Source of the DNA: an uncultured Candidatus Saccharibacteria bacterium
GTDB taxonomy: Bacteria; Patescibacteriota; Minisyncoccia; Phycocordibacterales; JACOZG01
DNA: 64,000 nucleotides
NCBI GenBank assembly: GCA_964399075.1
Contig: CAYNPK010000001.1
Coordinates: forward strand, 268,400 to 332,399
Direction of reading: 5' to 3'
In this document: piece after piece, positions 9,723-46,335 of the stretch
How the letters are laid out: every line of letters starts with the position of its first letter
Position numbering within the stretch: the stretch's first letter is position 1
Notes under the pieces: generated by a model
What the model was told of the DNA's origin: nothing
Databases searched by the model: none
What the model saw: the letters and a program-made list of their open reading frames with translations, nothing else
Position numbers and translations under genes: made by a program

Positions 9723-9959
9723 ATAAATTTAATTTGCTAATAAAAATAAGCGTCGATGAGGAAGGACCTCGGCAGGGTTTAATCGCCAATTAAGCGAAAC
9801 CTGCTGTCTACGGCTTATGAACTTAGCCTAAACAAAAACACCTCAATAGTCAAGCGTTCATGAAATATAAGACGAGAAACAAAACACAGATAGCGGTTAA
9901 GACAATAGAAATGAAGCCAACAGCCATTCGCCAAAACATTGAATTAAAATATTTCATGA

Positions 9960-11228
9960 TTAAAACCAACGACGCAAGCGTTGTAAATTTCTAGACCACC
10001 AAGAATCAGCCTTGGGAATAATAATTGTAGCATCTTCTGTCTCTATTTCTATTTCTTCTATGATGTCCTCGTCCGGGATAACTTCATCCGGAGTCAGAAA
10101 AGTGGTTGTTGCCGGTGGAACCCAAACTGGTGCTGGTGGTACAGGAATAACAGCCGGAGACGCTATGACCGGTACGACGGCTAGAGAACCGAAGGAGTCA
10201 GCCGGCGTGCCGTCAGGGTAACGCAAATAAACCAAGATTGGCCCCTCCGTCGGCAAGCCAATCACCGCGCCGGGGAGTTTAAGCGAGGCGCCAGCCGAGA
10301 TAATAGTATCAGAAGGAAAAGTGAAAGTTCCATCAAGAGTTTCCAATCGCCAATCACCCAGATTAACTTCTCGCGAGGAGGGATTAGAAAGTTCTATGTA
10401 CGGACGATTACCGCCAATTACTTCAACAATTTTCAACTTAGGCTCAATTACCTCAATAGAAGTTCGGTAAGTAGATTCTTCTCTACCACTTACCACATTA
10501 GTAATTACCGTGTAATTACCGGGAAATTGATAAATATGCCTAACCTCTGGTCCTTGATCTGATCCGCCGTCGCCGAAGCTCCAGCGATGACGATGGGAAA
10601 TCCCATTCCGTCCGCCGGTTGATTCGATTTTGAAGGCGACTGGCGTGTGGATAGTAGTTAAACGCGGTCGCCCACCGTTAAGCTGCCAAGACGCTTTAAT
10701 ATCGGTCGCCTGATTCAGCGCTTGGGGTGATTTGTGGGCAGAGACGACAGTAGTGCCATCCGTGTTTGCCGGCGGATCATCATCGTCATCATCGTCGCTC
10801 TCCGGAGGCGTCCCGCCAACGCGAATTTCCTGAGTGGCTGTCCAACTAGTCCCAGCTTCACGCAAAGTGACAATAACTGTTAAATTGTGAACACCAGCGC
10901 TACTGTCACGATAATAAAAATGTCTCTGGGAAGAATTTTTACTCATCGTCTTAGATGCCGGATTCCCCGCCTCACTAAGAAATTCGCCAGTAGATGAAGA
11001 AGACTGGAAACTAACATCCGCCGTTTCCGTAATGTTAGTTTTCTCCCCAGCCGAGTTTTGGGTTTGCACCGTCAGAATCTCCGAGAGCTCTCCGGGCGCC
11101 GGGGCCCTCACTTCCGTCACAAACTTAACTTGCGTGACTTGAGCATAAGCAATAACACCCGGCGTACTAATCAAAGCAAGCGCGAGAGCGAGAAAACTAG
11201 ATAGATAAACTAAATTAACTCGCGTCAT
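9960..11228 (-). CDS. Secreted protein with signal peptide, PKD-like domain, poly-Asp linker and Pro-rich C-terminus
   Basis: Signal peptide MTRVNLVYLSSFLALALALISTPGVIAYA. PKD signature WSFGDGGSDQGPEVRHIYQFPGNYTV. DDDDDDD run. Confidence 0.6.
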   Translation of the reverse strand: MTRVNLVYLSSFLALALALISTPGVIAYAQVTQVKFVTEVRAPAPGELSEILTVQTQNSAGEKTNITETADVSFQSSSSTGEFLSEAGNPASKTMSKNSSQRHFYYRDSSAGVHNLTVIVTLREAGTSWTATQEIRVGGTPPESDDDDDDDPPANTDGTTVVSAHKSPQALNQATDIKASWQLNGGRPRLTTIHTPVAFKIESTGGRNGISHRHRWSFGDGGSDQGPEVRHIYQFPGNYTVITNVVSGREESTYRTSIEVIEPKLKIVEVIGGNRPYIELSNPSSREVNLGDWRLETLDGTFTFPSDTIISAGASLKLPGAVIGLPTEGPILVYLRYPDGTPADSFGSLAVVPVIASPAVIPVPPAPVWVPPATTTFLTPDEVIPDEDIIEEIEIETEDATIIIPKADSWWSRNLQRLRRWF

Positions 11229-28107: not shown

Positions 28108-31100
28108 TTAAACAAAAGTAAACTCTTTAGCATTAACAGCAAGCTTGAGAACATCAGCATGTTTAAGCACCAAATCTCGCCGAGCAAGCGACACAGGCAT
28201 AATAGCTAACTCTCCGGGCTTAAGACCTGATTTCTTGCGCCAATCTTGCAATTTGCGAATCAAATCACGCAACTCCCCCTCTTCTTTAAGTTCCGGAGTA
28301 AGTTCAAGATCTAACTCCACCTCGCTTACTAATTCTGGATCAGAAGAGATCTCTTTAACATTTACCTCATCTTTGATTAAGTCTAACAATTGACTATTAT
28401 TCTTAATTTCTAGCGACATCTTTTTAATTTTAAGCCTGGCTAAAGGCTGACGGACTTTAATCCCCGCCTTAGCTCGCGCCTCCAAACCCAAGGAGACAAT
28501 CCGCCTGACCTCAATCATATCTTCAAGCAACCCTTGATCGACAAGATCAACTACTCTAGGCCAAGAATCCAAATGAACGCTTTCTTGATCACCCTCGAGT
28601 TGACGATAGATTTCTTCAGCAACAAAGGGAGTAAACGGCGCCAAAACTCTAGCTAAGATATTAAACACCTGCGCCAAAGTCGCCGAAGCGTTGACTCTTT
28701 CTTCTTTTGCCTCTGGCTTAAAGCGGTCACGAGAACGACGAACATACCAGACTGAAAGATCTTCAATAAAAATATTAATCACCCGCAAGGCCTGATCAAG
28801 TTCATATCTATCCATCGCTTCAGTAACTTCGCCAACTAACTGATTTAAGCGAGCGATAATCCAACGATCTAAGACATGACGGCTAATTATTTTTTTAGCT
28901 ACTGATTGTTCAACATCAGCATAAGTTTGATAAAACAACCAAACATTATCTAAACGATTAATTACCTTGCGGTAAATCTCACCCACTCCTAATTCAGAAA
29001 AGCAGGCATCTTCCGCCTTCAAGAGAGGTGAACTTAGTAAATAAAATCGCAAAGCATCTGCACCGTATTGATTAAGGATCAAGAGCGGGTCAGGAAAATT
29101 ACCTTTGGATTTAGACATCTTCTGACCATCAGAGGCCAAAACACTGCCGGTAGTAACCACATTTTTAAAAGGAATTTTGTTAAATAAAATAGTCGCCACT
29201 ACGTGCATGTAGTAAAACCAAGTCCGAGTTTGAGCAATATATTCTGAGACAAAATCAGCCGGCACGCGACGTCTAGTCTGTTCTTCCCGCTCGAAGGGAT
29301 AATGTTCGGCCGCAAAAGGCATGGAACCAGACTCAAACCAGCAGTCAACCACCTCCGGAATACGAGACATTAGGCCACCACAGTTGCAAGTTAATTTGAT
29401 TTTATCAATATACGGCCGATGAAAATCCAATTCATAATCATGATTGTGAGGCAGAGGTTTGTAAGAGAAATCTTTAACCTCGCCAGTTAACAAGAAATCG
29501 TCGTGAGTTTCTTTAAAATTAGAAGCTTCCGTCACACCCAAACCCAAGGCGCCGGCAAACAGCATGGTAATCGGAGTCTCGTGAGAAATCAATAAAATAT
29601 TTTTGCCTTGATAGCGACCTTCTAGATCATCAATCAAATTCATCATCCGACGCTTGACCGTCATTAGATCTTCGCCATTCGGACAGCCCTTGGTGAACTT
29701 ATCAATCGGGTTAGAAAAATGATGATAATACTCCGCTACCGGTCGACCGTTGAAGTCGCCGAAGTCAACCTCACGCAAACGCTTATCGTAAATTACTGAA
29801 GCAGTAGGCAGAGACAGTTCTCGAGCAATCAGCTCGGTAGTCTCTCTCGTGCGGACAAAGTCTGAAGAAATAATTAAATCAATCTTAGCCTTTTCCAACT
29901 TAGACAACACAGCCTTAATTTGTTCTCGACCCTTATCCGTCAAGTGGTGAGGATTATCGACACGACTACTGACAATATCTTGCACGTTATGATCGGCTTC
30001 GCCATGACGCATTGCCAAATATTTATTACCAGCGCTAATCGCCTCTTCTTGGAGCTCTACTAGGGAGCTAATCACTTTAACAAACTGACACTGATCACAC
30101 TTCCAAATCGGCAAGGGTGTGGCCCAAAATCGATTACGAGAAATATTCCAATCTGGCGCCCCTGCCATACTCTTGGCAAAGCGACCAAACTTAAGATGTT
30201 CTGGAATCCAATTAATTTCCTGATTCAATTCTCGTAAACGAGGCTTAAGATCCTGAATTTTAATAAACCAAGATGGCACAGCGTAATAATAAAGCGGGGT
30301 CTCGCAACGATAACAATGCGGATAAGAGTGAACAATTTTTTGCTTATCGAATAAAATATCACGCTTGGCTAAAAATTTAATAATCTCAATATCCGTCACT
30401 TGATGATTGTCCTTAGGCTTAACTAGTTGACCGGCAAAATCTTTAACTTCCAGCTGGAAACGCCCGGTATGATCAACATGGACAACAATAGGCAAATTTT
30501 CCTTCTTAGCCAGCGCCATGTCGTCCTCACCAAAAGCCGGAGCGATGTGGACAATGCCGGTACCATCAACAGTATTAACAAAATCAGCGCCACAAACTCG
30601 ACCTTCAGTTAGATAATAAGCAAAAGGCGGTTTATATTTTTTACCAATTAAATCTCGCCCTAAAAATTCTTCCTCAATAGAATAATCTGATTTAATAGAA
30701 GCCAGGAGACGATCTTTAGCCAAGATAAAATATTCTTGGCCAATTTTAACTTTCACATAAGAAATCTGCGGACCAACAGCAACCGCCGTATTGCCTGGCA
30801 AAGTCCAAGGCGTTGTTGTCCACACCAGAAGATAAGTACCCGGCTCGTCAAGCAATTCAAATTTAACAAAAACAGAGATATCAGAAATGTCTTTGTAACT
30901 ATTATCCATCGCGATTTCCGCATTAGCCAAGGGCGTCTCGCAACGAGGACAATAGGGCAAAACTCTAGTGCCTTCGTATAATAAACCCAACTTATTCATC
31001 TCGCTCAAAGCCCACCACACTGACTCGATATAAGTGTTATCCATCGTCTTATAAGAACCAGCGAAGTCAACCCAACGTCCCATGCGCTCTATCACCTTCT

Positions 31101-31548
31101 GCCAATCTGCGACATAAGTGAGAACTTTGTCTCTAGCAGTTTGATTAAATTTATCAATCCCCAATTCTTCAATCTGCTTTTTGCCAGAAATCTTTAATTC
31201 CTTTTCCACGATATTCTCTACTGGCAAACCATGACAATCCCAGCCCCAACGACGCGCCACCCTCTTCCCTCGCATTGTTTGATAGCGGGGAATCACGTCT
31301 TTAATCGCGCTCGCCAAGATGTGGCCATAATGTGGTGTACCGGTAGCAAAAGGCGGTCCGTCGTAGAAGACAAATTCCTCGTCACTGACATTTTTAGCCA
31401 ATGACTTTTCAAAAATTTGCTGTTCTTGCCAAAACTTAAGAATTCTCTCTTCTCGCTTGGCCACTTCTGATTTTTCCGGCAAATTATTCGCCATAATTAA
31501 GTCTATCCTAGCATTTTTTGGCCAGAAAAAAAGCCCGCCGGAATACAC
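28108..31548 (-). CDS. ileS: Isoleucyl-tRNA synthetase carrying an about 195-aa histidine-phosphatase (PGAM-like) domain insertion. Likely true start at the internal Met MANNLPEK (31494).
   Basis: HIGH region PHYGHILAS and KMSKSKGN. Editing-domain blocks. The insertion …LAMRHGEADHN…LLISHETPI… lies between the KCDQC and CNCGG zinc-knuckle halves (about 29461..30048). Confidence 0.9.
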   Translation of the reverse strand: MYSGGLFFWPKNARIDLIMANNLPEKSEVAKREERILKFWQEQQIFEKSLAKNVSDEEFVFYDGPPFATGTPHYGHILASAIKDVIPRYQTMRGKRVARRWGWDCHGLPVENIVEKELKISGKKQIEELGIDKFNQTARDKVLTYVADWQKVIERMGRWVDFAGSYKTMDNTYIESVWWALSEMNKLGLLYEGTRVLPYCPRCETPLANAEIAMDNSYKDISDISVFVKFELLDEPGTYLLVWTTTPWTLPGNTAVAVGPQISYVKVKIGQEYFILAKDRLLASIKSDYSIEEEFLGRDLIGKKYKPPFAYYLTEGRVCGADFVNTVDGTGIVHIAPAFGEDDMALAKKENLPIVVHVDHTGRFQLEVKDFAGQLVKPKDNHQVTDIEIIKFLAKRDILFDKQKIVHSYPHCYRCETPLYYYAVPSWFIKIQDLKPRLRELNQEINWIPEHLKFGRFAKSMAGAPDWNISRNRFWATPLPIWKCDQCQFVKVISSLVELQEEAISAGNKYLAMRHGEADHNVQDIVSSRVDNPHHLTDKGREQIKAVLSKLEKAKIDLIISSDFVRTRETTELIARELSLPTASVIYDKRLREVDFGDFNGRPVAEYYHHFSNPIDKFTKGCPNGEDLMTVKRRMMNLIDDLEGRYQGKNILLISHETPITMLFAGALGLGVTEASNFKETHDDFLLTGEVKDFSYKPLPHNHDYELDFHRPYIDKIKLTCNCGGLMSRIPEVVDCWFESGSMPFAAEHYPFEREEQTRRRVPADFVSEYIAQTRTWFYYMHVVATILFNKIPFKNVVTTGSVLASDGQKMSKSKGNFPDPLLILNQYGADALRFYLLSSPLLKAEDACFSELGVGEIYRKVINRLDNVWLFYQTYADVEQSVAKKIISRHVLDRWIIARLNQLVGEVTEAMDRYELDQALRVINIFIEDLSVWYVRRSRDRFKPEAKEERVNASATLAQVFNILARVLAPFTPFVAEEIYRQLEGDQESVHLDSWPRVVDLVDQGLLEDMIEVRRIVSLGLEARAKAGIKVRQPLARLKIKKMSLEIKNNSQLLDLIKDEVNVKEISSDPELVSEVELDLELTPELKEEGELRDLIRKLQDWRKKSGLKPGELAIMPVSLARRDLVLKHADVLKLAVNAKEFTFV

Positions 31549-31590: not shown

Positions 31591-31884
31591 TCACTTTTTC
31601 CTCCTCCGCCTCACTGTCTTGGTTGTCTGCAGTTCTCTGCGCGTCCTCTCGGGCCAGGGCTTAGGTGGTGACGACCCAAAACAAAATTCAATATCCGAGA
31701 GCCCCAGCTGTCTTTTCAAATCCTCCATTTGCTTGGCTCTAGCTTCAGCGGCGCAGACGGGACAGATACAAACAGAGCCACCAAGGACCGGGTTCTCCGG
31801 AGTGGATCCGCGAGCCGGTTCTGCGCCGAGGCAACGACTGTGTTCATTTCGGATACAGTTGTAACAAACTCTTAGAACCACCAT
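31591..31884 (-). CDS. Small zinc-ribbon protein with a highly basic C-terminal tail, GC-rich
   Basis: CYNC…CICPVC is a four-Cys ribbon. Ends RRRRKK. Strong RBS GGAGG 7 nt upstream of ATG. Confidence 0.5.
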   Translation of the reverse strand: MVVLRVCYNCIRNEHSRCLGAEPARGSTPENPVLGGSVCICPVCAAEARAKQMEDLKRQLGLSDIEFCFGSSPPKPWPERTRRELQTTKTVRRRRKK

Positions 31885-31944: not shown

Positions 31945-31985
31945 CAATAAAACAAGAAGAAAACCCCGGGCAAAATGACGCTCGG
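31945..31985 (-). terminator. Hairpin terminator downstream of DGR target 2
   Basis: AAACCCCG-(14 nt)-CGGGGTTT, then a T-rich run on the minus strand. Confidence 0.55.
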
Positions 31986-32038
31986 GGTTTCAAAAAACCT
32001 AAGGTTCTAAAAGTTTTAATGACCAAAGTTTCGAAGCG

Positions 32039-32486
32039 CTACTTGATGCGACGGCCAGCGAACCACCAGTCGCCATTCCAGCCATTGTCGCAGCAGTTGA
32101 CGTACACGTCGCGCTCGTCGTTCCAGTGGTTGAAGGCGATGTAGCACCATTCACCGCTTTCGTCCTTCCAGTGAGTGAAGTTGGGATACTGGTTGGCAAA
32201 ATCCGGGTCGGCCTCGTTCACCGCCGCCAGATCGTCGGGAAAGGCGGGGGCGAGACCCTGCAGTTCGCACTCATTCTCCAGATCGGCATCGGTCACGTAG
32301 CGGAAGAGGGGGGAAGAAAATGACCTCTGACTCTTCTCCAATACCACGGGGCATTTTAGCCACTACTTCGGGCTCGATGTACTGAACTCGACGAGTGGCA
32401 TCGAGTACCCCCTGGGAAGTGAGAGTGCGGTTGACTGGGACTCCCGAAACAACAACTAGACCGTTTCGTAGTTCCTGGATAATCAC
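32039..32486 (-). pseudogene. DGR target gene 2, a truncated paralog of target 1 carrying VR2. Interrupted by a +1 frameshift at a C6 tract (32308..32313). Putative GTG start after an AAAGGAGAG RBS.
   Basis: Two overlapping ORFs (32271..32549 and 32039..32347) together reproduce the target-1 C-terminal two-thirds. A tract one C shorter would fuse them in frame. Confidence 0.6.
32045..32138 (-). repeat. DGR variable repeat VR2, remote from the cassette
   Basis: 94-bp match to TR with 7-8 mismatches, all at TR adenines on the coding strand. The 3' block GGTTCGCTGGCCGTCGCA is identical. Confidence 0.8.
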
Positions 32487-32576
32487 AACACTCTCCTTTC
32501 GTTTTCTGGTTGTTTTCAGTTCCTGCGGGTTGGCACAAACCACACCCAAATCAAAGAACTCTGTTATCTGTTTAGT

Positions 32577-32605
32577 AAACTATGCTCTAATAATTAATCT
32601 GTCAA
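32577..32605 (-). promoter_or_regulatory. Sigma70-like promoter for target 2 (TTGACA-17-TAGTTT), homologous to the target-1 promoter
   Basis: The minus strand reads cTTGACAgattaattattagagcaTAGTTT. It is followed by a 5' UTR conserved with target 1. Confidence 0.45.
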
Positions 32606-32610
32606 GAGAC

Positions 32611-34257
32611 CTACATCTTCTCCGGAACCGTGATGCCTAAGAGATCCAAGCCGTTCTCAAGCACTTGCGCCACGGCGTTGGTCAAAGCCAAGCGATAATT
32701 TTCTTCCTCATTGCCGATAATTTTATTAACCGCGTAATAAGAATTGAAAGCAGAAGCTAATTCAGTTAAATAAGTAATTAAATAATTAGGCGAGTAGTCA
32801 GAAGCGGAGCGTTCGACAACTTCCGGGAAACGATACAAAATTCTCTCCACCAGACTAATCGCACTCCCCTCTCTTTCTGTTTCTTTAGCGAGAATATCCA
32901 AATCAATTTTCTTGTTCGCCTTAGCTACTACCGCTTTGGCCCGGACGCAAGTGTATTGCAAGTAAGGACCGGAGTCGCCTTCGAAGGAGAGAGATTTAGC
33001 AAAATCAAAAATAATATCCTTACCGGGCGATTGACGCAAAATGGAATATTTAAGCGCGGCAATTGCTACCTGCGTAGCAATCTTCTCTTTGTCTGTCTCA
33101 CTTAATTCTCTATCAGAAATTTTTTCCTCCACCAGACTCTCCACATCGGAAATCAACGATTCGCCAGTAATCACATTGCCCTTTCTTGATGACATTTTAC
33201 CCGTGGCAAGTTTGAGCATTCCGTGGGACAAATGCTTCGTTCGCTTAGCAACTTCTGGACGGATTTCCCACAAGGCTCGAAGTACAACCTTAAAATAAGC
33301 GTCCTGCTCATTGGCCGTAATAATAATCGATTCGTCAGCGGGATACTTCTCAAACTTTCGCAAAGCATGAGCAATGTCCTTGGACTCATAAGTCGGTACG
33401 CCTTGCTTGGTCACAAAAACTCGCGTATGGAGATTGGGTTCGAATTTCTCCCCTTCAAACACGATCGCACCGCCACTTTCTTTAAAAATCCCTTTTCCCA
33501 AAAACTCTTTGGTAATCGCCGTCGCCTCACCAGCCACCTCGCTTTCAAAAAAATAAAAATCAAATTTTGTCCCAAGCTTCTTATATAATTCCTCAAAGTG
33601 CTCAAGGCTCACTCTCTTGCCCCAAACATAAATCGTGGAGAGCTCTTCATCGTTCTTATCATACAATTTTTTATTTATCTCCTTGATCTCCTCTGTTGCC
33701 TGAACGTCAGTCTCATAAGCTTCCGCTCCGAGAGCGTAAGCTTTGCCGATATATTCCACCTGTTCACTCAAGCTTGACTCAATGACGCCACCCAGCTTCG
33801 TTATCCCCCAGACCGCCTTAGCAACATGCAAACCAACATCGCCCTGATAAGTATTACGCTTCACTTCGGCACCGTTCTTCTCGATTAGACGCGAGAGCGA
33901 TTCGCCGATCACGTTACCCATCAAGTGGCCAATGTGAAGAGGCTTCAATATGTTAGTATTAGTATATTCAATAATTACTTTCTTATTCTTTAAATTATCA
34001 CTCTGGCCAAAATTATTTTTTTTCTGATTGATCTCAATGATAGCTTGAGTAAAAAATTCAGGCGAGAAATAGAAATTAATAAAACCGCCAACAACAGCTA
34101 CTCTCTCCAGCCAAGCTGGTTTCTCTTTATTTATCTTAACCGCTAATTCTGTCGCCAAGCCACGCGCGTGGCATGAATAGTCACCATGATCTAAATTGCC
34201 AGGATGTTCAAATTTAAACGAGTCGCCCACCAATTTCTGTAATTCTTCAATAATCAT
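32611..34257 (-). CDS. argS: Arginyl-tRNA synthetase
   Basis: …KPLHIGHLMGNVIGE… HIGH region and …KMSSRKGNVI…. Confidence 0.9.
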   Translation of the reverse strand: MIIEELQKLVGDSFKFEHPGNLDHGDYSCHARGLATELAVKINKEKPAWLERVAVVGGFINFYFSPEFFTQAIIEINQKKNNFGQSDNLKNKKVIIEYTNTNILKPLHIGHLMGNVIGESLSRLIEKNGAEVKRNTYQGDVGLHVAKAVWGITKLGGVIESSLSEQVEYIGKAYALGAEAYETDVQATEEIKEINKKLYDKNDEELSTIYVWGKRVSLEHFEELYKKLGTKFDFYFFESEVAGEATAITKEFLGKGIFKESGGAIVFEGEKFEPNLHTRVFVTKQGVPTYESKDIAHALRKFEKYPADESIIITANEQDAYFKVVLRALWEIRPEVAKRTKHLSHGMLKLATGKMSSRKGNVITGESLISDVESLVEEKISDRELSETDKEKIATQVAIAALKYSILRQSPGKDIIFDFAKSLSFEGDSGPYLQYTCVRAKAVVAKANKKIDLDILAKETEREGSAISLVERILYRFPEVVERSASDYSPNYLITYLTELASAFNSYYAVNKIIGNEEENYRLALTNAVAQVLENGLDLLGITVPEKM

Positions 34258-42736: not shown

Positions 42737-43820
42737 TCAAAATGGGAAAGGCAATATTGAGAGCCTCCAGAACTTTAGTTTTGGCTTCCAGTAAAGGCAA
42801 CTTCATAGTAGCACCAACAGCAGCGCGATGACCACCGCCACCGACGAGAGTGACAAATTTAGTTAAGTCAAAAACCTGACCATCTCTAGTCCGAGCGCTT
42901 AATTTAACTTGACCAGCTTGCCACTCAAACAAAGTGATGCCAATGTCCCAACCTCGAACTGATTTTAAAATATTAGCAATAGACACACCCCGAGAGGCAT
43001 TCTCATCGAGGTGATGACTCGCTAATTCTTGATGAGACAAAGCCACGATAGCTACCCTATCGCCACGATAAGTTTGAATGGAACTAAACGCCAAACCCTG
43101 GAGATGGAGCGATTCAGGATTATTATTATTTTCTAACTTAAAAATCGTCTGATGATAATCAGGGACAATACTAGCCAAGCGCGAGGCTACCAGCAAAGTG
43201 TTGGGAGTGGTAGCCGGGTATTTGAATCCGCCAGTATCAGTATAAATTCCAAGAAATAAACAAGTGGCCATGTCAGGGGTAATTTCCGCTCCCCAAGCGA
43301 CAAATAATTCGTAGAGAATTTGAGCAGTCGCTGGATAATCAGCTAGAATTAAATTAATTTTAGCAAAAGGCGCATTCGTCAAATGATGATCAATCAAAAT
43401 AGTAGTCATCGTGTCGGGGAAATTTACTGGACCAAGATCAGTCACTCGTCTAATATCAGAAATATCTAACATGATAAACAAATCAAATTCACTTGGTTCA
43501 ATTTCCAAATAATTTTTAGCAACAATCACTTCCGCCCCGGGTAGAAACTCGGCGAAATCCGGCACTGGGGAATCACCCTTGATCACCATCACCTCCTTCC
43601 CCAACCCCCGCAAATAATGAAACATCGCCAGAGAGCTACCAACGCTATCAGGATCGGGGTGGGGGTGGAAGTGCAACAACACTCGCTTGGCGCGATTGAT
43701 AGCAGAGAAAATCTCTGTCGCTTTATCGGTAAATGAGTTGGGCATAATTAACTTAGAACAGTATACCACCACTTTGAGATCTGTGGATGATTTTCTGCTT
43801 AAGTTTCCAGCCATTACCAT
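42723..43820 (-). CDS. nrnA: DHH/DHHA1 phosphoesterase (NrnA-like). Likely start at the internal Met MPNSFTDK (about 43745), which removes the overlap with the RT gene.
   Basis: …TTILIDHHLT… (DHH) and …VGGGGHRAAVG… (DHHA1). Confidence 0.8.
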   Translation of the reverse strand: MVMAGNLSRKSSTDLKVVVYCSKLIMPNSFTDKATEIFSAINRAKRVLLHFHPHPDPDSVGSSLAMFHYLRGLGKEVMVIKGDSPVPDFAEFLPGAEVIVAKNYLEIEPSEFDLFIMLDISDIRRVTDLGPVNFPDTMTTILIDHHLTNAPFAKINLILADYPATAQILYELFVAWGAEITPDMATCLFLGIYTDTGGFKYPATTPNTLLVASRLASIVPDYHQTIFKLENNNNPESLHLQGLAFSSIQTYRGDRVAIVALSHQELASHHLDENASRGVSIANILKSVRGWDIGITLFEWQAGQVKLSARTRDGQVFDLTKFVTLVGGGGHRAAVGATMKLPLLEAKTKVLEALNIAFPILIDNR

Positions 43821-44784
43821 GTGTCAGCATCCCCAAATATGATTGCGCTACTTCCGGCCGGCTAGCGACCATTTCTAATCGTTTCAACATTCTTCTCTTT
43901 GTTACTGTTCGCAGAACACGATATCTAGGAAAATTTACCCAACCAAGAAAATCAACACCCGAAGCAATCGTTTTCACAAAGACTTTATTCGGATGTAATT
44001 CTAACTTCAATTTTTCTGCCAAAAAATCACTAATTTTAGGTGTCATTTCTAGTAAATAATCTTGATCACAATCGATAATTACAAAATCGTCAGCGTAACG
44101 AAGATAGTGTCTAGCTTTTAATTGATGCTTCATAAACTGATCTAGTTCACTCAGGTAAATATTAGCGAAAAGTTGCGAGGTGAGATTACCAAGGGGTAAA
44201 CCCTTCTTCGAGACACCAGAGTTAAAACTGCAAACTACTTTTTCAATCAAACAGAAGATATTTTTATCTAAGATTTCTCCTTTCAATAAACCAAGCAATA
44301 TTTCTTGATCAATACTAGCGAAAAATTTACGAATATCGCACTTCAATACCCACACTGCTTTAGTATTATTGCGACAAAGTTTGAAAGTTTTATCAGCAAA
44401 TTTTCTGACCGCTTTATGCGTACCTTTGCCATTTCGACAAGAATAAGAATCGTAAATAAATCGAGAGTGGAAATACGGATAGAGAATTCGATAGATAGCC
44501 CGGTGAACCACACGGTCGCGAACATTGGCTTTGTGAATCTGGCGAGGCTTGGGATCGGAAATACGGAAAGCGCGATAGGAAGAATGCTGATAGGTTTGTT
44601 GAGTTAACTCTTGGTTTAATGCTAGGATATTATCCGCCAGCCGAAGCGAGAATGTTTGCACCTCACGCTTGCCTCGTTTGCCACGCGCGAAATCTCGCCA
44701 AGCTAGAAATAAATTATCAACCGAAATAACATCGTTATACTTATGACTCAACCCTTTCCCTCTAAGACCCCCCCCCCAGCGCAA
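43753..44784 (-). CDS. DGR-type reverse transcriptase. TTG start. An alternative TTG at 44751 is preceded by an AGAGGG SD.
   Basis: RT motifs: N-terminal …DNLFLAWRDFARGKRGKREV…, …DSYSCRNGKGTHKA…, DGR-hallmark GLPLGNLTSQLFANIYL and LRYADDFVI (YxDD). Confidence 0.9.
   Translation of the reverse strand: MRWGGGLRGKGLSHKYNDVISVDNLFLAWRDFARGKRGKREVQTFSLRLADNILALNQELTQQTYQHSSYRAFRISDPKPRQIHKANVRDRVVHRAIYRILYPYFHSRFIYDSYSCRNGKGTHKAVRKFADKTFKLCRNNTKAVWVLKCDIRKFFASIDQEILLGLLKGEILDKNIFCLIEKVVCSFNSGVSKKGLPLGNLTSQLFANIYLSELDQFMKHQLKARHYLRYADDFVIIDCDQDYLLEMTPKISDFLAEKLKLELHPNKVFVKTIASGVDFLGWVNFPRYRVLRTVTKRRMLKRLEMVASRPEVAQSYLGMLTHGNGWKLKQKIIHRSQSGGILF
44768..44777 (-). repeat. Homopolymeric tract (C10 on plus, G10 on RT coding strand) at the RT 5' end
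   Basis: Seen directly. Encodes GGG in the long ORF, or lies just 5' of the SD if the downstream TTG start is used. Confidence 0.9.
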
Positions 44785-44786
44785 AT

Positions 44787-45173
44787 TTGAGCATCATCCA
44801 ACGACTTTTGCAAACTTATTGTTTGTGGCAGGAATTCGTTAAACATTTCCAAAAGACTAGCAAATATTCTCTGGGGATCAAAATTGATCAATTATTAGTG
44901 GAAGTTTTGGAATTAACCAGCGCGGCCAGCTTCTCGCCCAAAGAAGAAAAACTACCCTATGTGAAGCGCGCGATTATTAAATTAGACACTCTTAAATTTC
45001 TACTTCAAGTGGCCTGGGAAACAGGGTCATTGAACGAGAAGAGGTTCGCGTCCTTGTCACAACCACTAGCCGAGATTGGGAAGATGTTAGGTGGATGGCG
45101 CGGGCAACTCTTGAGACAGCTACCAATTACATCAAAACAAAACTCTCCCAGCATGAAGCCGAGAGAGAAATAA
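44787..45173 (+). CDS. Avd-like four-helix-bundle accessory protein (TIGR02436-like). Encoded on the opposite strand to the RT and targets.
   Basis: C-terminal half …LDTLKFLLQVAWETGSLNEKRFASLSQPLAEIGKMLGGW… fits the Avd consensus (…eigkmLngl…). N-terminal half is degenerate. TTG start. Confidence 0.5.
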   Translation: MSIIQRLLQTYCLWQEFVKHFQKTSKYSLGIKIDQLLVEVLELTSAASFSPKEEKLPYVKRAIIKLDTLKFLLQVAWETGSLNEKRFASLSQPLAEIGKMLGGWRGQLLRQLPITSKQNSPSMKPREK

Positions 45174-45178
45174 AGCAA

Positions 45179-45272
45179 GTTGCGACGGCCAGCGAACCAC
45201 CAGTTGTCATTCCAGTCATTGTCGTTGCAGTTGACGTTCACGTTGCGCTCGTCGTTCCAGTGGTTGAAGGCG
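45179..45272 (-). repeat. DGR template repeat (TR). Non-coding; the 78-aa ORF 45005..45241 is its spurious translation.
   Basis: The coding-strand sense is AAC-rich (…AAC GTG AAC GTC AAC TGC AAC GAC AAT GAC TGG AAT GAC AAC…). It is a 94-bp near-identical copy of VR1 and VR2. Confidence 0.85.
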
Positions 45273-45576: not shown

Positions 45577-45629
45577 AAGGACTAAGGTCAAAGGATCTAA
45601 AAGATCCAATGGCCAAAGTCCACAAAGAA

Positions 45630-46247
45630 CTACTTGCGACGGCCAGCGAACCACCAGCTGTCATTCCAGTCATTGTCGTTGCAGTAGACGTTCACGTTGC
45701 GCTCGTCGTTCCAGTGGTTGAAGGCGATAAAACGCCACTTGCCATCCTCGCCCTTCCAGTGGGTACCGTTCGGTTTCTCCTTCGCGAAATTGGGATCGGC
45801 GGCATTGACGGCCGCCAAATCGTCTGGGAAAGCGGGTACGAGACCGCGGAGATCAAATTCCTTCTCGAGCTCATCGTCGCTCACGTAACGGCCGAGGTGG
45901 AAGAAGAAAACCCCCGCCTCTTCGCCGGTGCCCCTGGGCATGGAATCCACCACCTCGCTGTCGGTATACTGCCTTCTGCCGGTGGCGTCGAGTACCTCCT
46001 GGGGAGTGAGGCTACGGTTAATCGGGACGCGACGGATGATGAGGTTGCTCTGGACCTCCACCCGCCGACGAAACTCCTGGACCACTGCGTCAGCGAACTC
46101 GGGCTGTCCGAGCACTGTCTGCACCGCCACTGACTCGAACTCTTTGCCGTGCTTTTCGAGCCACACTCGGCAATTGTTCAGAAATTTGTCGATCTGACCG
46201 GCAGTCGTGGTTTTGGACTCTCTGGATGGGGTCATGGATTTCGCCAT
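45630..46247 (-). CDS. DGR target protein 1 (205 aa). No signal peptide or TM. The ORF-track start at 46307 is rejected as translated 5' UTR.
   Basis: AAAGGAGGA RBS 6 nt before ATGGCGAAATCC (MAKSMTPS…). C-terminus …FNHWNDERNVNVYCNDNDWNDSWWFAGRRK is encoded by VR1. Confidence 0.7.
   Translation of the reverse strand: MAKSMTPSRESKTTTAGQIDKFLNNCRVWLEKHGKEFESVAVQTVLGQPEFADAVVQEFRRRVEVQSNLIIRRVPINRSLTPQEVLDATGRRQYTDSEVVDSMPRGTGEEAGVFFFHLGRYVSDDELEKEFDLRGLVPAFPDDLAAVNAADPNFAKEKPNGTHWKGEDGKWRFIAFNHWNDERNVNVYCNDNDWNDSWWFAGRRK
45634..45726 (-). repeat. DGR variable repeat VR1, covering the last about 30 codons of target 1
   Basis: Differs from TR at only two positions, both TR adenines on the coding strand. 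Ends 1 nt before the stop codon. Confidence 0.85.
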
Positions 46248-46335
46248 GGCGTCATCCTCCTTTCGTTTTCTGGTCGTTTCTAGTTCCCGCGGGTTGGCAC
46301 TCGCCAATCCAAATCAAAGAACAGGTACTCTCCTT

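Follow-up and report, generated by a model that had tools for sequence, protein, structure and literature searches.

A second, non-adjacent variable repeat of a Patescibacteria-type DGR in a frameshifted paralogue of its adjacent target gene

Introduction

Can one DGR cassette serve, in addition to the target gene beside it, a second gene from which it is separated by a row of housekeeping genes, and what has become of that second gene if its reading frame is broken? This question is raised by a stretch of DNA of 64,000 nucleotides (the window, in which all positions are counted from the first letter) that holds a DGR cassette and, well away from it, a further copy of the cassette's repeat. 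A model-made first-pass annotation had described the distant copy as a remote second target, lying in a truncated and frameshifted paralogue of the first. DGRs of the CPR type, with the gene order TR-(avd)-RT, were reportedly described by Paul et al. in 2017, as cited by Wu et al. 2018. This order, termed architecture B3, is found in 90% of CPR DGRs and is almost absent elsewhere (Wu et al., PMC5758913). Here, we will describe the cassette and its adjacent target, the repeat family and the gene around the distant copy, then the broken reading frame and the flanking signals of that gene, and finally weigh the explanations for its present state and compare the element with known systems.

The DGR cassette and target 1

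With its TR-(avd)-RT order, the cassette at 43.7-46.3 kb belongs to the Patescibacteria-type DGRs of class B3, and it has two variable repeats, VR1 next to it and VR2 at a distance. It comprises a DGR-type reverse transcriptase (RT), an adenine-specific pair of template repeat (TR) and VR, an Avd protein and a VR placed in a C-type-lectin fold, and on the minus strand its parts follow one another in the order target 1 with VR1, 360 nt, TR, antisense avd and RT. The RT gene (43753..44784, minus strand, coordinates as in the ORF list) matches RVT_1 with E = 1.3e-22, the model libraries used being without a DGR-specific RT model, and its translation contains the motifs LGNLTSQ and YADD; protein synthesis probably begins at the in-frame TTG at 44751, past a G10 homopolymer. 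The avd gene (44787..45173, plus strand) lies on the opposite strand between TR and RT and encodes a 128-aa Avd homologue, which scores 44.5 bits against PF22296 (bAvd; cut-off 40) and reaches E = 2e-16 against NF033474 (DGR Avd), a match under that model's cut-off of 80 bits. No second RT or avd was detected anywhere in the window, and no Rfam family in either target leader or around the TR.

Target 1 (45630..46247, minus strand) encodes a protein of 205 aa, in which a three-helix domain at the N-terminus is followed by a C-terminal domain with a C-type-lectin (CLec) fold. More than 200 homologues, each about 200 aa long, were found in metagenomes, none of them informatively named or carrying any Pfam domain. 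Variation within the family clusters in the last roughly 35 residues, and the C-terminal scaffold residues (W, F, G, R) are conserved family-wide. On the strength of LYVE-1, intimin, SUMF2 and Lcl-C, the target family is a compact CLec-fold variable protein.

A search of species-representative genomes with aligned target homologues yielded 80 loci, nearly all labelled Patescibacteria. About 40 of these have the TR-(avd)-RT order, with the antisense position of avd kept and the TR located 300-440 nt past the target stop codon, and in the related cis pairs TR and VR differ by 8-24 mismatches, almost all on adenines. The published CPR/Patescibacteria B3 DGRs (PMC5758913; clade 2 of Roux et al. 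2021, PMC8144416) likewise have a reverse-strand avd between TR and RT in the same gene order, the same host phylum and a small target with a C-terminal VR. In contrast to these, the present element adds a second, non-adjacent target, and its target family was matched by no Pfam or NCBIfam model.

A repeat family that differs at adenines only

Repeat finding in the window returned one 93-nt family with three copies, all on the minus strand. The TR occupies 45180..45272; of its 93 nt, 26 are adenines, most of which belong to AAC/GAC codons when read in the target frame, and VR1 (45634-45726) lies within target 1. The third copy, VR2 (32046..32138), provides the last 31 codons of target 2 up to the conserved block TGGTGGTTCGCTGGCCGTCGCA and is in register with the TR, so that the third copy some 13 kb from the TR that the first-pass annotation had reported is indeed there. 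The 18-nt 3' block named in that annotation, GGTTCGCTGGCCGTCGCA, occurs in three exact copies on the minus strand, at 32047, 45181 and 45635, with 0.02 matches expected by chance from shuffled sequences. A possible fourth copy at 10173 was rejected as a chance similarity, since it has 3 mismatches, sits inside an unrelated 422-aa ORF and has flanks without similarity.

Read on the coding strand, VR1 differs from the TR by two substitutions (A>T and A>G), and VR2 differs by seven core substitutions (five A>G and two A>T) and an eighth, A>T, at the last shared (boundary) base. All of these, that is 2/2 in VR1 and 7/7 core plus one boundary mismatch in VR2, fall on TR adenines, as had been claimed for VR2; given that 26 of the 93 TR bases are A, the probability of this for the seven core mismatches is P = 6.9e-5. 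The first-pass annotation had staked its reading on a careful alignment of TR and VR2, and in this alignment the 67 TR positions other than A show 0 mismatches. Its total of 7-8 mismatches and its TT>CA dinucleotide are both real, and only the split needs correcting: on the plus strand T>C occurs five times instead of four, and T>A three times with the boundary base counted. When every A of the TR is masked to N, the resulting pattern has exactly three sites without mismatch in the window, namely the TR, VR1 and VR2, and no match in shuffled sequence.

The substitution sites of VR1 and VR2 do not overlap, and at both VR1-specific positions VR2 has the base of the TR and not that of VR1, so that a conversion from VR1 is excluded. 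As the substitutions all fall on adenines and form disjoint sets, the suggestion that VR2 was mutagenised independently of VR1 is well borne out. The three copies are identical throughout the GC-rich block TGGTGGTTCGCTGGCCGTCGCA and part after it, where the TR reads CTTGC..., VR1 reads AGTAG, which includes its stop codon, and VR2 reads CGC ATC AAG TAG, 3 nt having been inserted just where the TR homology ends on its 3' side.

As a side observation, adenine substitutions are fewer at both VR1 (2) and VR2 (7-8) than in any one of 38 related cis pairs (8-24), and given these low numbers the DGR element may be near-quiescent.

The gene around VR2

Target 2 (32039..32486, minus strand) is a short-form paralogue of target 1 that encodes 148 aa once one C is removed. 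It starts with a GTG at 32486, ahead of which lies AAGGAG, and as assembled it is divided into two reading frames of 71 aa and roughly 100 aa, the 71-aa upstream product being a called gene in both NCBI and Logan. The frame is broken at a C6 tract (32308..32313, minus strand; G6 on the plus strand), where C5 would restore ...EVIFFPLFRYVTDAD..., which aligns with ...GVFFFHLGRYVSDDE... of target 1. Removal of one base gives one continuous ORF, (M)IIQELRNG...WWFAGRRIK, just as the first-pass annotation had proposed, and the restored protein is 62% identical to residues 55-204 of target 1; at the nucleotide level, repeat finding gave 266 nt of similarity at 76% between the two host genes. The description of the VR2 host gene as a shorter, frameshifted paralogue is therefore apt, and so is the estimate that it is about 57 aa shorter (53 residues missing at the N-terminus and 5 aa deleted internally, less one inserted Ile). 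What target 2 lacks is the N-terminal helical domain and five further residues, including the family-invariant Arg72. Among the 45 family-conserved columns, defined as those at least 90% conserved, it retains 38 and target 1 retains 42.

Outside the VR, the two targets are separated by a saturated synonymous divergence (pS 0.74) and a much lower non-synonymous one (pN 0.23), with both sides of the frameshift alike. Third codon positions differ at 67 of 116 sites outside the VR (58%) and at 0 of 31 inside it (P about 2.5e-12), and the changes inside the VR are 9 non-synonymous and 0 synonymous. Judged from these differences, target 2 is an ancient paralogue that has evolved under purifying selection, and the view of it as a recent truncated copy is wrong. 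Because synonymous divergence is saturated outside the repeat and absent inside, VR2 was rewritten from the TR long after the duplication; VR2 has thus evolved in concert with the TR, and on this codon comparison repeated or recent overwriting of VR2 from the TR is the only explanation for the contrast between outside and inside.

Among 5.8 billion proteins we found no intact orthologue of target 2, the best match being target 1 of the same genome (61%), and a scan of JGI metagenomes with the A-masked TR and then with a target 2 pattern tolerant of C5 or C6 gave no match. Three other short forms of the family (L062, L072 and L082) begin just ahead of the CLec domain and never have a nearby RT, and one of them, L062, also adjoins argS and ileS. 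They were rejected as orthologues of target 2, having another start residue and being no closer to it than the full-length proteins are, for which reasons the truncations look independent.

The broken frame and the present state of VR2

The C6 tract and the consensus of VR2 are the same in Logan contigs of three sequencing runs, which are 100% identical to the window over 5.4 kb (SRR11845627), 3.9 kb (SRR11845628) and 7.8 kb (SRR11845629). These are consecutive accessions, possibly of one sample, and the comparison is one of consensus contigs. Since the assemblies of the three runs agree on the length of this frame-breaking tract, the frameshift is not an assembler artefact, and the long neighbours of target 2, ileS (1146 aa) and argS (548 aa), are unbroken, as would not be expected of an indel-prone assembly. 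The Logan contigs also cross VR2 unbroken, whereas one contig terminates within the TR and those of two runs break at 32661; the shared consensus and the unbroken contigs argue against strong heterogeneity of VR2 within the population.

The most likely state of target 2 is that of a target inactivated or switched off not long ago, whose sequence still shows the mark of its last homing event. Because pN stays far lower than pS before and after the break, any relaxation of selection would be too recent to see; pN/pS is unable to date a recent inactivation, and for the reading as a recent pseudogene the frameshift is the sole evidence. This mark has survived on an allele that is unable to make a full-length protein.

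Promoter, leader and hairpins

Upstream of target 2, a promoter-like TTGACA-17-TAGTTT (32577..32605, minus strand) was recognised by eye, with a perfect -35 and a weak -10 element (3/6 consensus positions), and scans for consensus promoters and terminators called nothing at target 2. Target 1 has TTGACA-17-TATACT, so that of the promoter proposed to be common to both genes the motif at target 2 is present as described and the -10 element at target 1 is a different one. The conserved 5' UTR, in turn, can be specified as a 57-nt leader block (32493..32549, minus strand) that is 82% identical to the target 1 leader at 46257-46313, and a related leader signature, GTTCTTTGAT, is found across the target family.

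Past target 1 lies a long interrupted hairpin (45579..45621, minus strand) of 43 nt and 15 bp with T-rich internal loops, which extends from 9 to 51 nt past the stop codon and has a folding z of -3.9. Comparable hairpins are found in 41 of the 64 target flanks of relatives, where they start 2-15 nt past the stop codon, differ in sequence while sharing one architecture, and have a mean z of -2.0. Past target 2 there is a weak, residual AT-rich hairpin of 8 bp (32003..32024, minus strand), 15-36 nt past the stop codon, whose z of -0.4 is no better than that of shuffled sequence; the apical stem has been lost and the 3' arm is incomplete. Further downstream, minimum-free-energy and centroid structures both give a GC hairpin that resembles a terminator and has a T-rich run behind it (31961..31990, minus strand). 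The hairpin/terminator layout that the two targets had been said to share is in this way preserved in its terminator part and essentially lost at VR2 in its post-VR part. The stand-alone targets of relatives fold no worse on average than the cis targets, and about half of them are without a long hairpin.

The DGR of Bordetella phage BPP-1 (mtd-avd-TR-brt), which provides the mechanistic model, differs from the present element in several respects. The BPP-1 element is phage-borne, whereas the present element is cellular and has its avd antisense and downstream of the TR. The post-VR hairpin of target 1 has its counterpart in the inverted repeat that follows the IMH of BPP-1 (PMC5758913), but it is long, has T-rich loop interruptions and starts about 9 nt past the stop codon. 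In addition, TR and VR of the present element are identical across the whole GC block, with donor and recipient differing only past it.

Explaining the second target

We consider it likely that one DGR cassette serves two genes and that target 2 is a long-maintained trans target which was recently knocked out or switched off. By analogy with BPP-1, a complex of RT and Avd would copy the TR transcript into cDNA, placing random bases opposite template adenines, and this cDNA would replace any genomic site with a GC-rich 3' block that matches and with homology on the 5' side. Such a cDNA intermediate would be diffusible, for which reason VR2 could be rewritten in the same way as the adjacent VR1. 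Target 2 retains only the C-type-lectin domain, the C-terminal surface of which is varied, and judging from its flanks it seems to be equipped with a promoter, a leader, a ribosome-binding site and a terminator of its own. Purifying selection kept the gene, and over that time the TR would have overwritten its final 93 nt again and again. The allele of the sampled population has a fixed 1-nt insertion in the C tract, a degenerate post-VR hairpin and 3 extra nt where the TR homology ends on its 3' side; these three features make recent inactivation or switching off the most likely state, and its homing signals may be starting to decay.

It would be otherwise if the extra C were a sequencing or assembly error and target 2 an intact, expressed gene, giving the element two working targets. 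The position of the break in a homopolymer is what such an error would look like, the low pN in both halves and the many family-conserved residues kept are those of a functional gene, and promoter, ribosome-binding site and terminator are all present. However, the NCBI contig and the contigs of the three runs agree over 3.9-7.8 kb with the C6 included, the two long neighbouring genes are unbroken, and neither a C5 version nor a close intact orthologue turned up in the 5.8 billion proteins or the JGI metagenomes, and we regard this explanation as very improbable. The C tract might instead be real and act as a slipped-strand on/off switch, or allow +1 ribosomal slippage on CCC-CCU, so that target 2 would be expressed by only some of the population or only weakly. 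The break lies exactly at a C6 run encoding Pro-Pro with the signatures of selection intact on both sides, and 33 of 34 cassettes of the same lineage have far longer simple repeats where avd and RT meet. We nevertheless think a switch of this kind improbable, because C6 is short for efficient slippage, because G/C runs of 6 or more number 15 in 64 kb with roughly 11 expected by chance (our own estimate), and because the length of the tract is constant among the assemblies of the three runs, with no orthologue found to show that the tract is conserved. The contingency loci of Neisseria, Haemophilus and Campylobacter are similar in that a frame-breaking G/C homopolymer lies in the gene of a variable surface-type protein; the present tract, in contrast, has just 6 nt and no length variation among the three runs' assemblies.

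The likeness of VR2 to the TR could also be attributed to common descent or to ordinary gene conversion between paralogues, without any retrohoming, as targets 1 and 2 are paralogous and the C-terminal scaffold is conserved throughout the family. Neither process would account for third positions that differ at 58% outside the repeat and nowhere inside it, or for the placing of every VR2 difference from the TR on an adenine, and we hold this to be extremely unlikely. A more serious competitor is that VR2 is a dead relic, that is, a past target which has lost its cis elements for homing and is decaying together with its frameshifted gene. Its degenerate hairpin, the insertion at the 3' junction, the weak -10 element and the frameshift can all be read in this way, as can the identical VR2 consensus in the three runs. 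Yet the 67 non-adenine sites are without a single change, so any loss of competence must be recent, and the hairpin may not be required at all, as about half of the relatives' stand-alone targets have no long one; a dead relic is therefore possible but, in our estimate, rather unlikely. With a long-maintained trans target as the preferred explanation, VR2 may still be competent for homing today, and the loss of function of target 2 would be recent.

Simple-sequence repeats at the avd/RT junction

The G10 homopolymer mentioned above (44768..44777, minus strand) is part of the cassette and lies where the divergent avd and RT genes meet, in a junction of roughly 100 nt. In 33 of 34 related cassettes this junction contains either a G8-G11 tract or a tetranucleotide array, (TTGG)7, (CTGG)10 or (TGAC)13, set against a background of 0.042 such repeats per kb, and in the searchable literature we found no mention of this repeat. 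The occurrence of differing repeat units at one position suggests selection in favour of a slippage-prone tract that would control RT and/or avd. A placement of the repeat in frame behind an upstream start codon was considered and rejected, as it showed no consistent pattern (RT at 13/34 loci, avd at 17/34).

These junction repeats make repeat-based switching plausible in the lineage, and one can imagine two layers of programmed variation, in which the DGR hypermutates the lectin tips and simple-sequence tracts gate expression, although we give this idea little credence. If it were true, the C6 tract would be a reversible off state of target 2 and the junction array a switch for the diversifier itself, and target 2 would be a silenced reserve receptor, the VR of which is still rewritten while the gene is off, and not a dead gene.

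Distance and rarity of the second target

The distance from VR2 is 13.0 kb to the TR and about 11-11.6 kb to the RT, and the housekeeping genes argS, thyA, SHMT, tmk and dut lie between VR2 and RT. In the survey by Wu et al. 2018, a target is non-adjacent if it differs from the TR by A-to-N changes only, lies outside other DGRs and has further genes between itself and the cassette (PMC5758913), all of which is true of VR2. The label 'remote', used by the first-pass annotation, is reserved in the field for targets more than 100 kb away, which were found only outside the CPR set (PMC5758913), and 'non-adjacent' is the appropriate term here. Nor is the arrangement as uncommon as had been supposed: 45 of the 372 surveyed DGRs (12%) have non-adjacent targets, located from a few kb to Mb away (PMC5758913), and metagenome surveys miss such distant targets by design (Roux et al., PMC8144416). 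According to work cited in PMC5758913, avd-TR-brt supplied in trans works. A second target at this distance is a documented arrangement and a normal variant of the element type, and the accepted picture of how DGRs work is left unchanged by it.

The same arrangement, one TR with several distant VRs, is known from the DGRs of Treponema denticola (seven targets), Legionella and cyanobacteria (PMC5758913, PMC4891356, PMC7517822), and as in the present element each VR has its own set of adenine substitutions and the targets are paralogous proteins with a CLec fold. The present case differs from these in that the distance is only 13 kb and the second target is both domain-truncated and frameshifted. 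Its particular value lies in being a clean natural case, in which VR2 is in perfect register with the TR at non-adenine positions and the remainder of the paralogue is at synonymous saturation; a CPR bacterium would here have kept up homing in trans over a long time. For annotation, it means that the 448-bp stretch between argS and ileS can be entered as a DGR variable-protein gene served in trans.

Stand-alone copies are common in this CPR target family as a whole. Among its 67 assessable genes, 42 lie no more than 3 kb from an RT or avd and 25 (37%) stand alone, that is, they have at least 5 kb of downstream sequence with neither RT nor avd in it. On a 652-kb Moranbacteria contig, one target is located 206 kb from the cassette; 15 of its 16 mismatches to the cassette TR are on adenines, and its post-VR flank is also shared with that cassette. 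This places a CPR copy well beyond the 100 kb at which the 2018 survey had targets only outside the CPR set.

A repeat tract between avd and RT

In the window, avd and RT diverge from a very short junction that holds a G10 homopolymer (44768-44777). Of 34 related DGR cassettes from Patescibacteria (L003-L080, handles for related loci found by scanning species-representative genomes with an alignment of target homologues), 33 carry at this junction either a G tract (G8-G11) or an array of tetranucleotides, the latter being (TTGG)7, (CTGG)10 or (TGAC)13, set against a background density of 0.042 such repeats per kb. The repeat looks like a conserved slippage-prone tract and, judging from sequence, could serve as a switch of RT and/or avd expression. 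In the related cassettes no upstream in-frame start is consistently found at the repeat, and we found no mention of it in the searchable literature.

Conserved elements flanking the targets

The target genes themselves are framed by elements that recur between species. The 5' leaders of target 1 and of target 2, its shorter frameshifted paralogue (window 46257-46335 and 32493-32570, respectively), are 82% identical despite saturated synonymous sites of the genes. Directly past the promoter is a GTTCTTTGAT box, which is common to many relatives (upstream regions in L005, L029, L038, L073, L080 and others), and in many of them the leader also contains a long hairpin (GGTCATAGCGAAAAG...CTCGCTATGACC is one example) ahead of a conserved GGAGGATGACGCCATG start region; a comparison of the target leaders with Rfam gave no family match. 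At the other end of the gene, just beyond its stop codon, target 1 has a long hairpin (window 45579-45621), as do most targets of this family (41 of 64 flanks among the targets in L003-L082). These hairpins begin 2-15 nt past the stop codon and are built from 9-16 bp arranged as short helices with T-rich internal loops between them; their shape is kept between species, whereas their sequences are not (mean z = -2.0, the folding score relative to shuffled sequence).

Divergence of variable repeats and further related loci

VR1 (window 45634-45726) carries two substitutions relative to the TR and VR2 (32046-32138) seven to eight, and both are nearer their TR than all 38 cis TR/VR pairs of related species, which show 8-24 differences. 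These low counts may mean that mutagenesis is weak, that homing was recent and TR-like sequence was selected for, or that conversion took place without mutagenesis.

A target far from its cassette is also present in a Moranbacteria genome, where two of the related loci, L061 and L067, share the 652-kb contig CAVURJ010000001.1 and the target gene is located 206 kb from the DGR cassette. Fifteen of its 16 mismatches to the TR of that cassette fall on adenines, and the flank after the VR is near-identical. This contig represents a CPR genome with a DGR target more than 100 kb away, a class that a 2018 survey found only outside its CPR set (PMC5758913). In a Moraniibacteriota genome, the short-form target of L056 (~9940-10010) has its conserved start region (GGATGACGCCATG, MTHVVTPSD) out of frame with the remainder of the gene and a C6 run at the junction of the two, which makes it a further case in this target family of a reading frame broken at a homopolymer. 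In two further loci, L015 and L066, a repeat resembling a TR lies after the target, and its mismatches are reported as adenine-only (18/18 and 12/13). No recognisable avd or RT is located within 10 kb of either, and both loci may represent cassettes that have decayed or been rearranged.

Genomic surroundings of target 2

The Logan contigs of SRR11845627 and SRR11845628 both stop at exactly window 32661, inside the 3' end of argS and upstream of the promoter of target 2 by ~55 nt, whereas that of SRR11845629 continues through this position; this suggests that part of the population has a strain variant or rearrangement there. The interval from target 2 to ileS contains a 97-aa Cys-rich ORF (CxxC...C...CxC..C; window 31591-31884, minus strand), which three Logan assemblies annotate as a gene and which has no Pfam or NCBIfam match; with a GC content of 57% it is, like target 2, GC-rich compared with its flanks (~43%). 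The neighbouring isoleucyl-tRNA synthetase (1146 aa; window 28108-31548, minus strand) has a histidine-phosphatase domain (His_Phos_1) inserted between its tRNA-synt_1 segments, according to the precomputed Pfam matches of the identical Logan gene.
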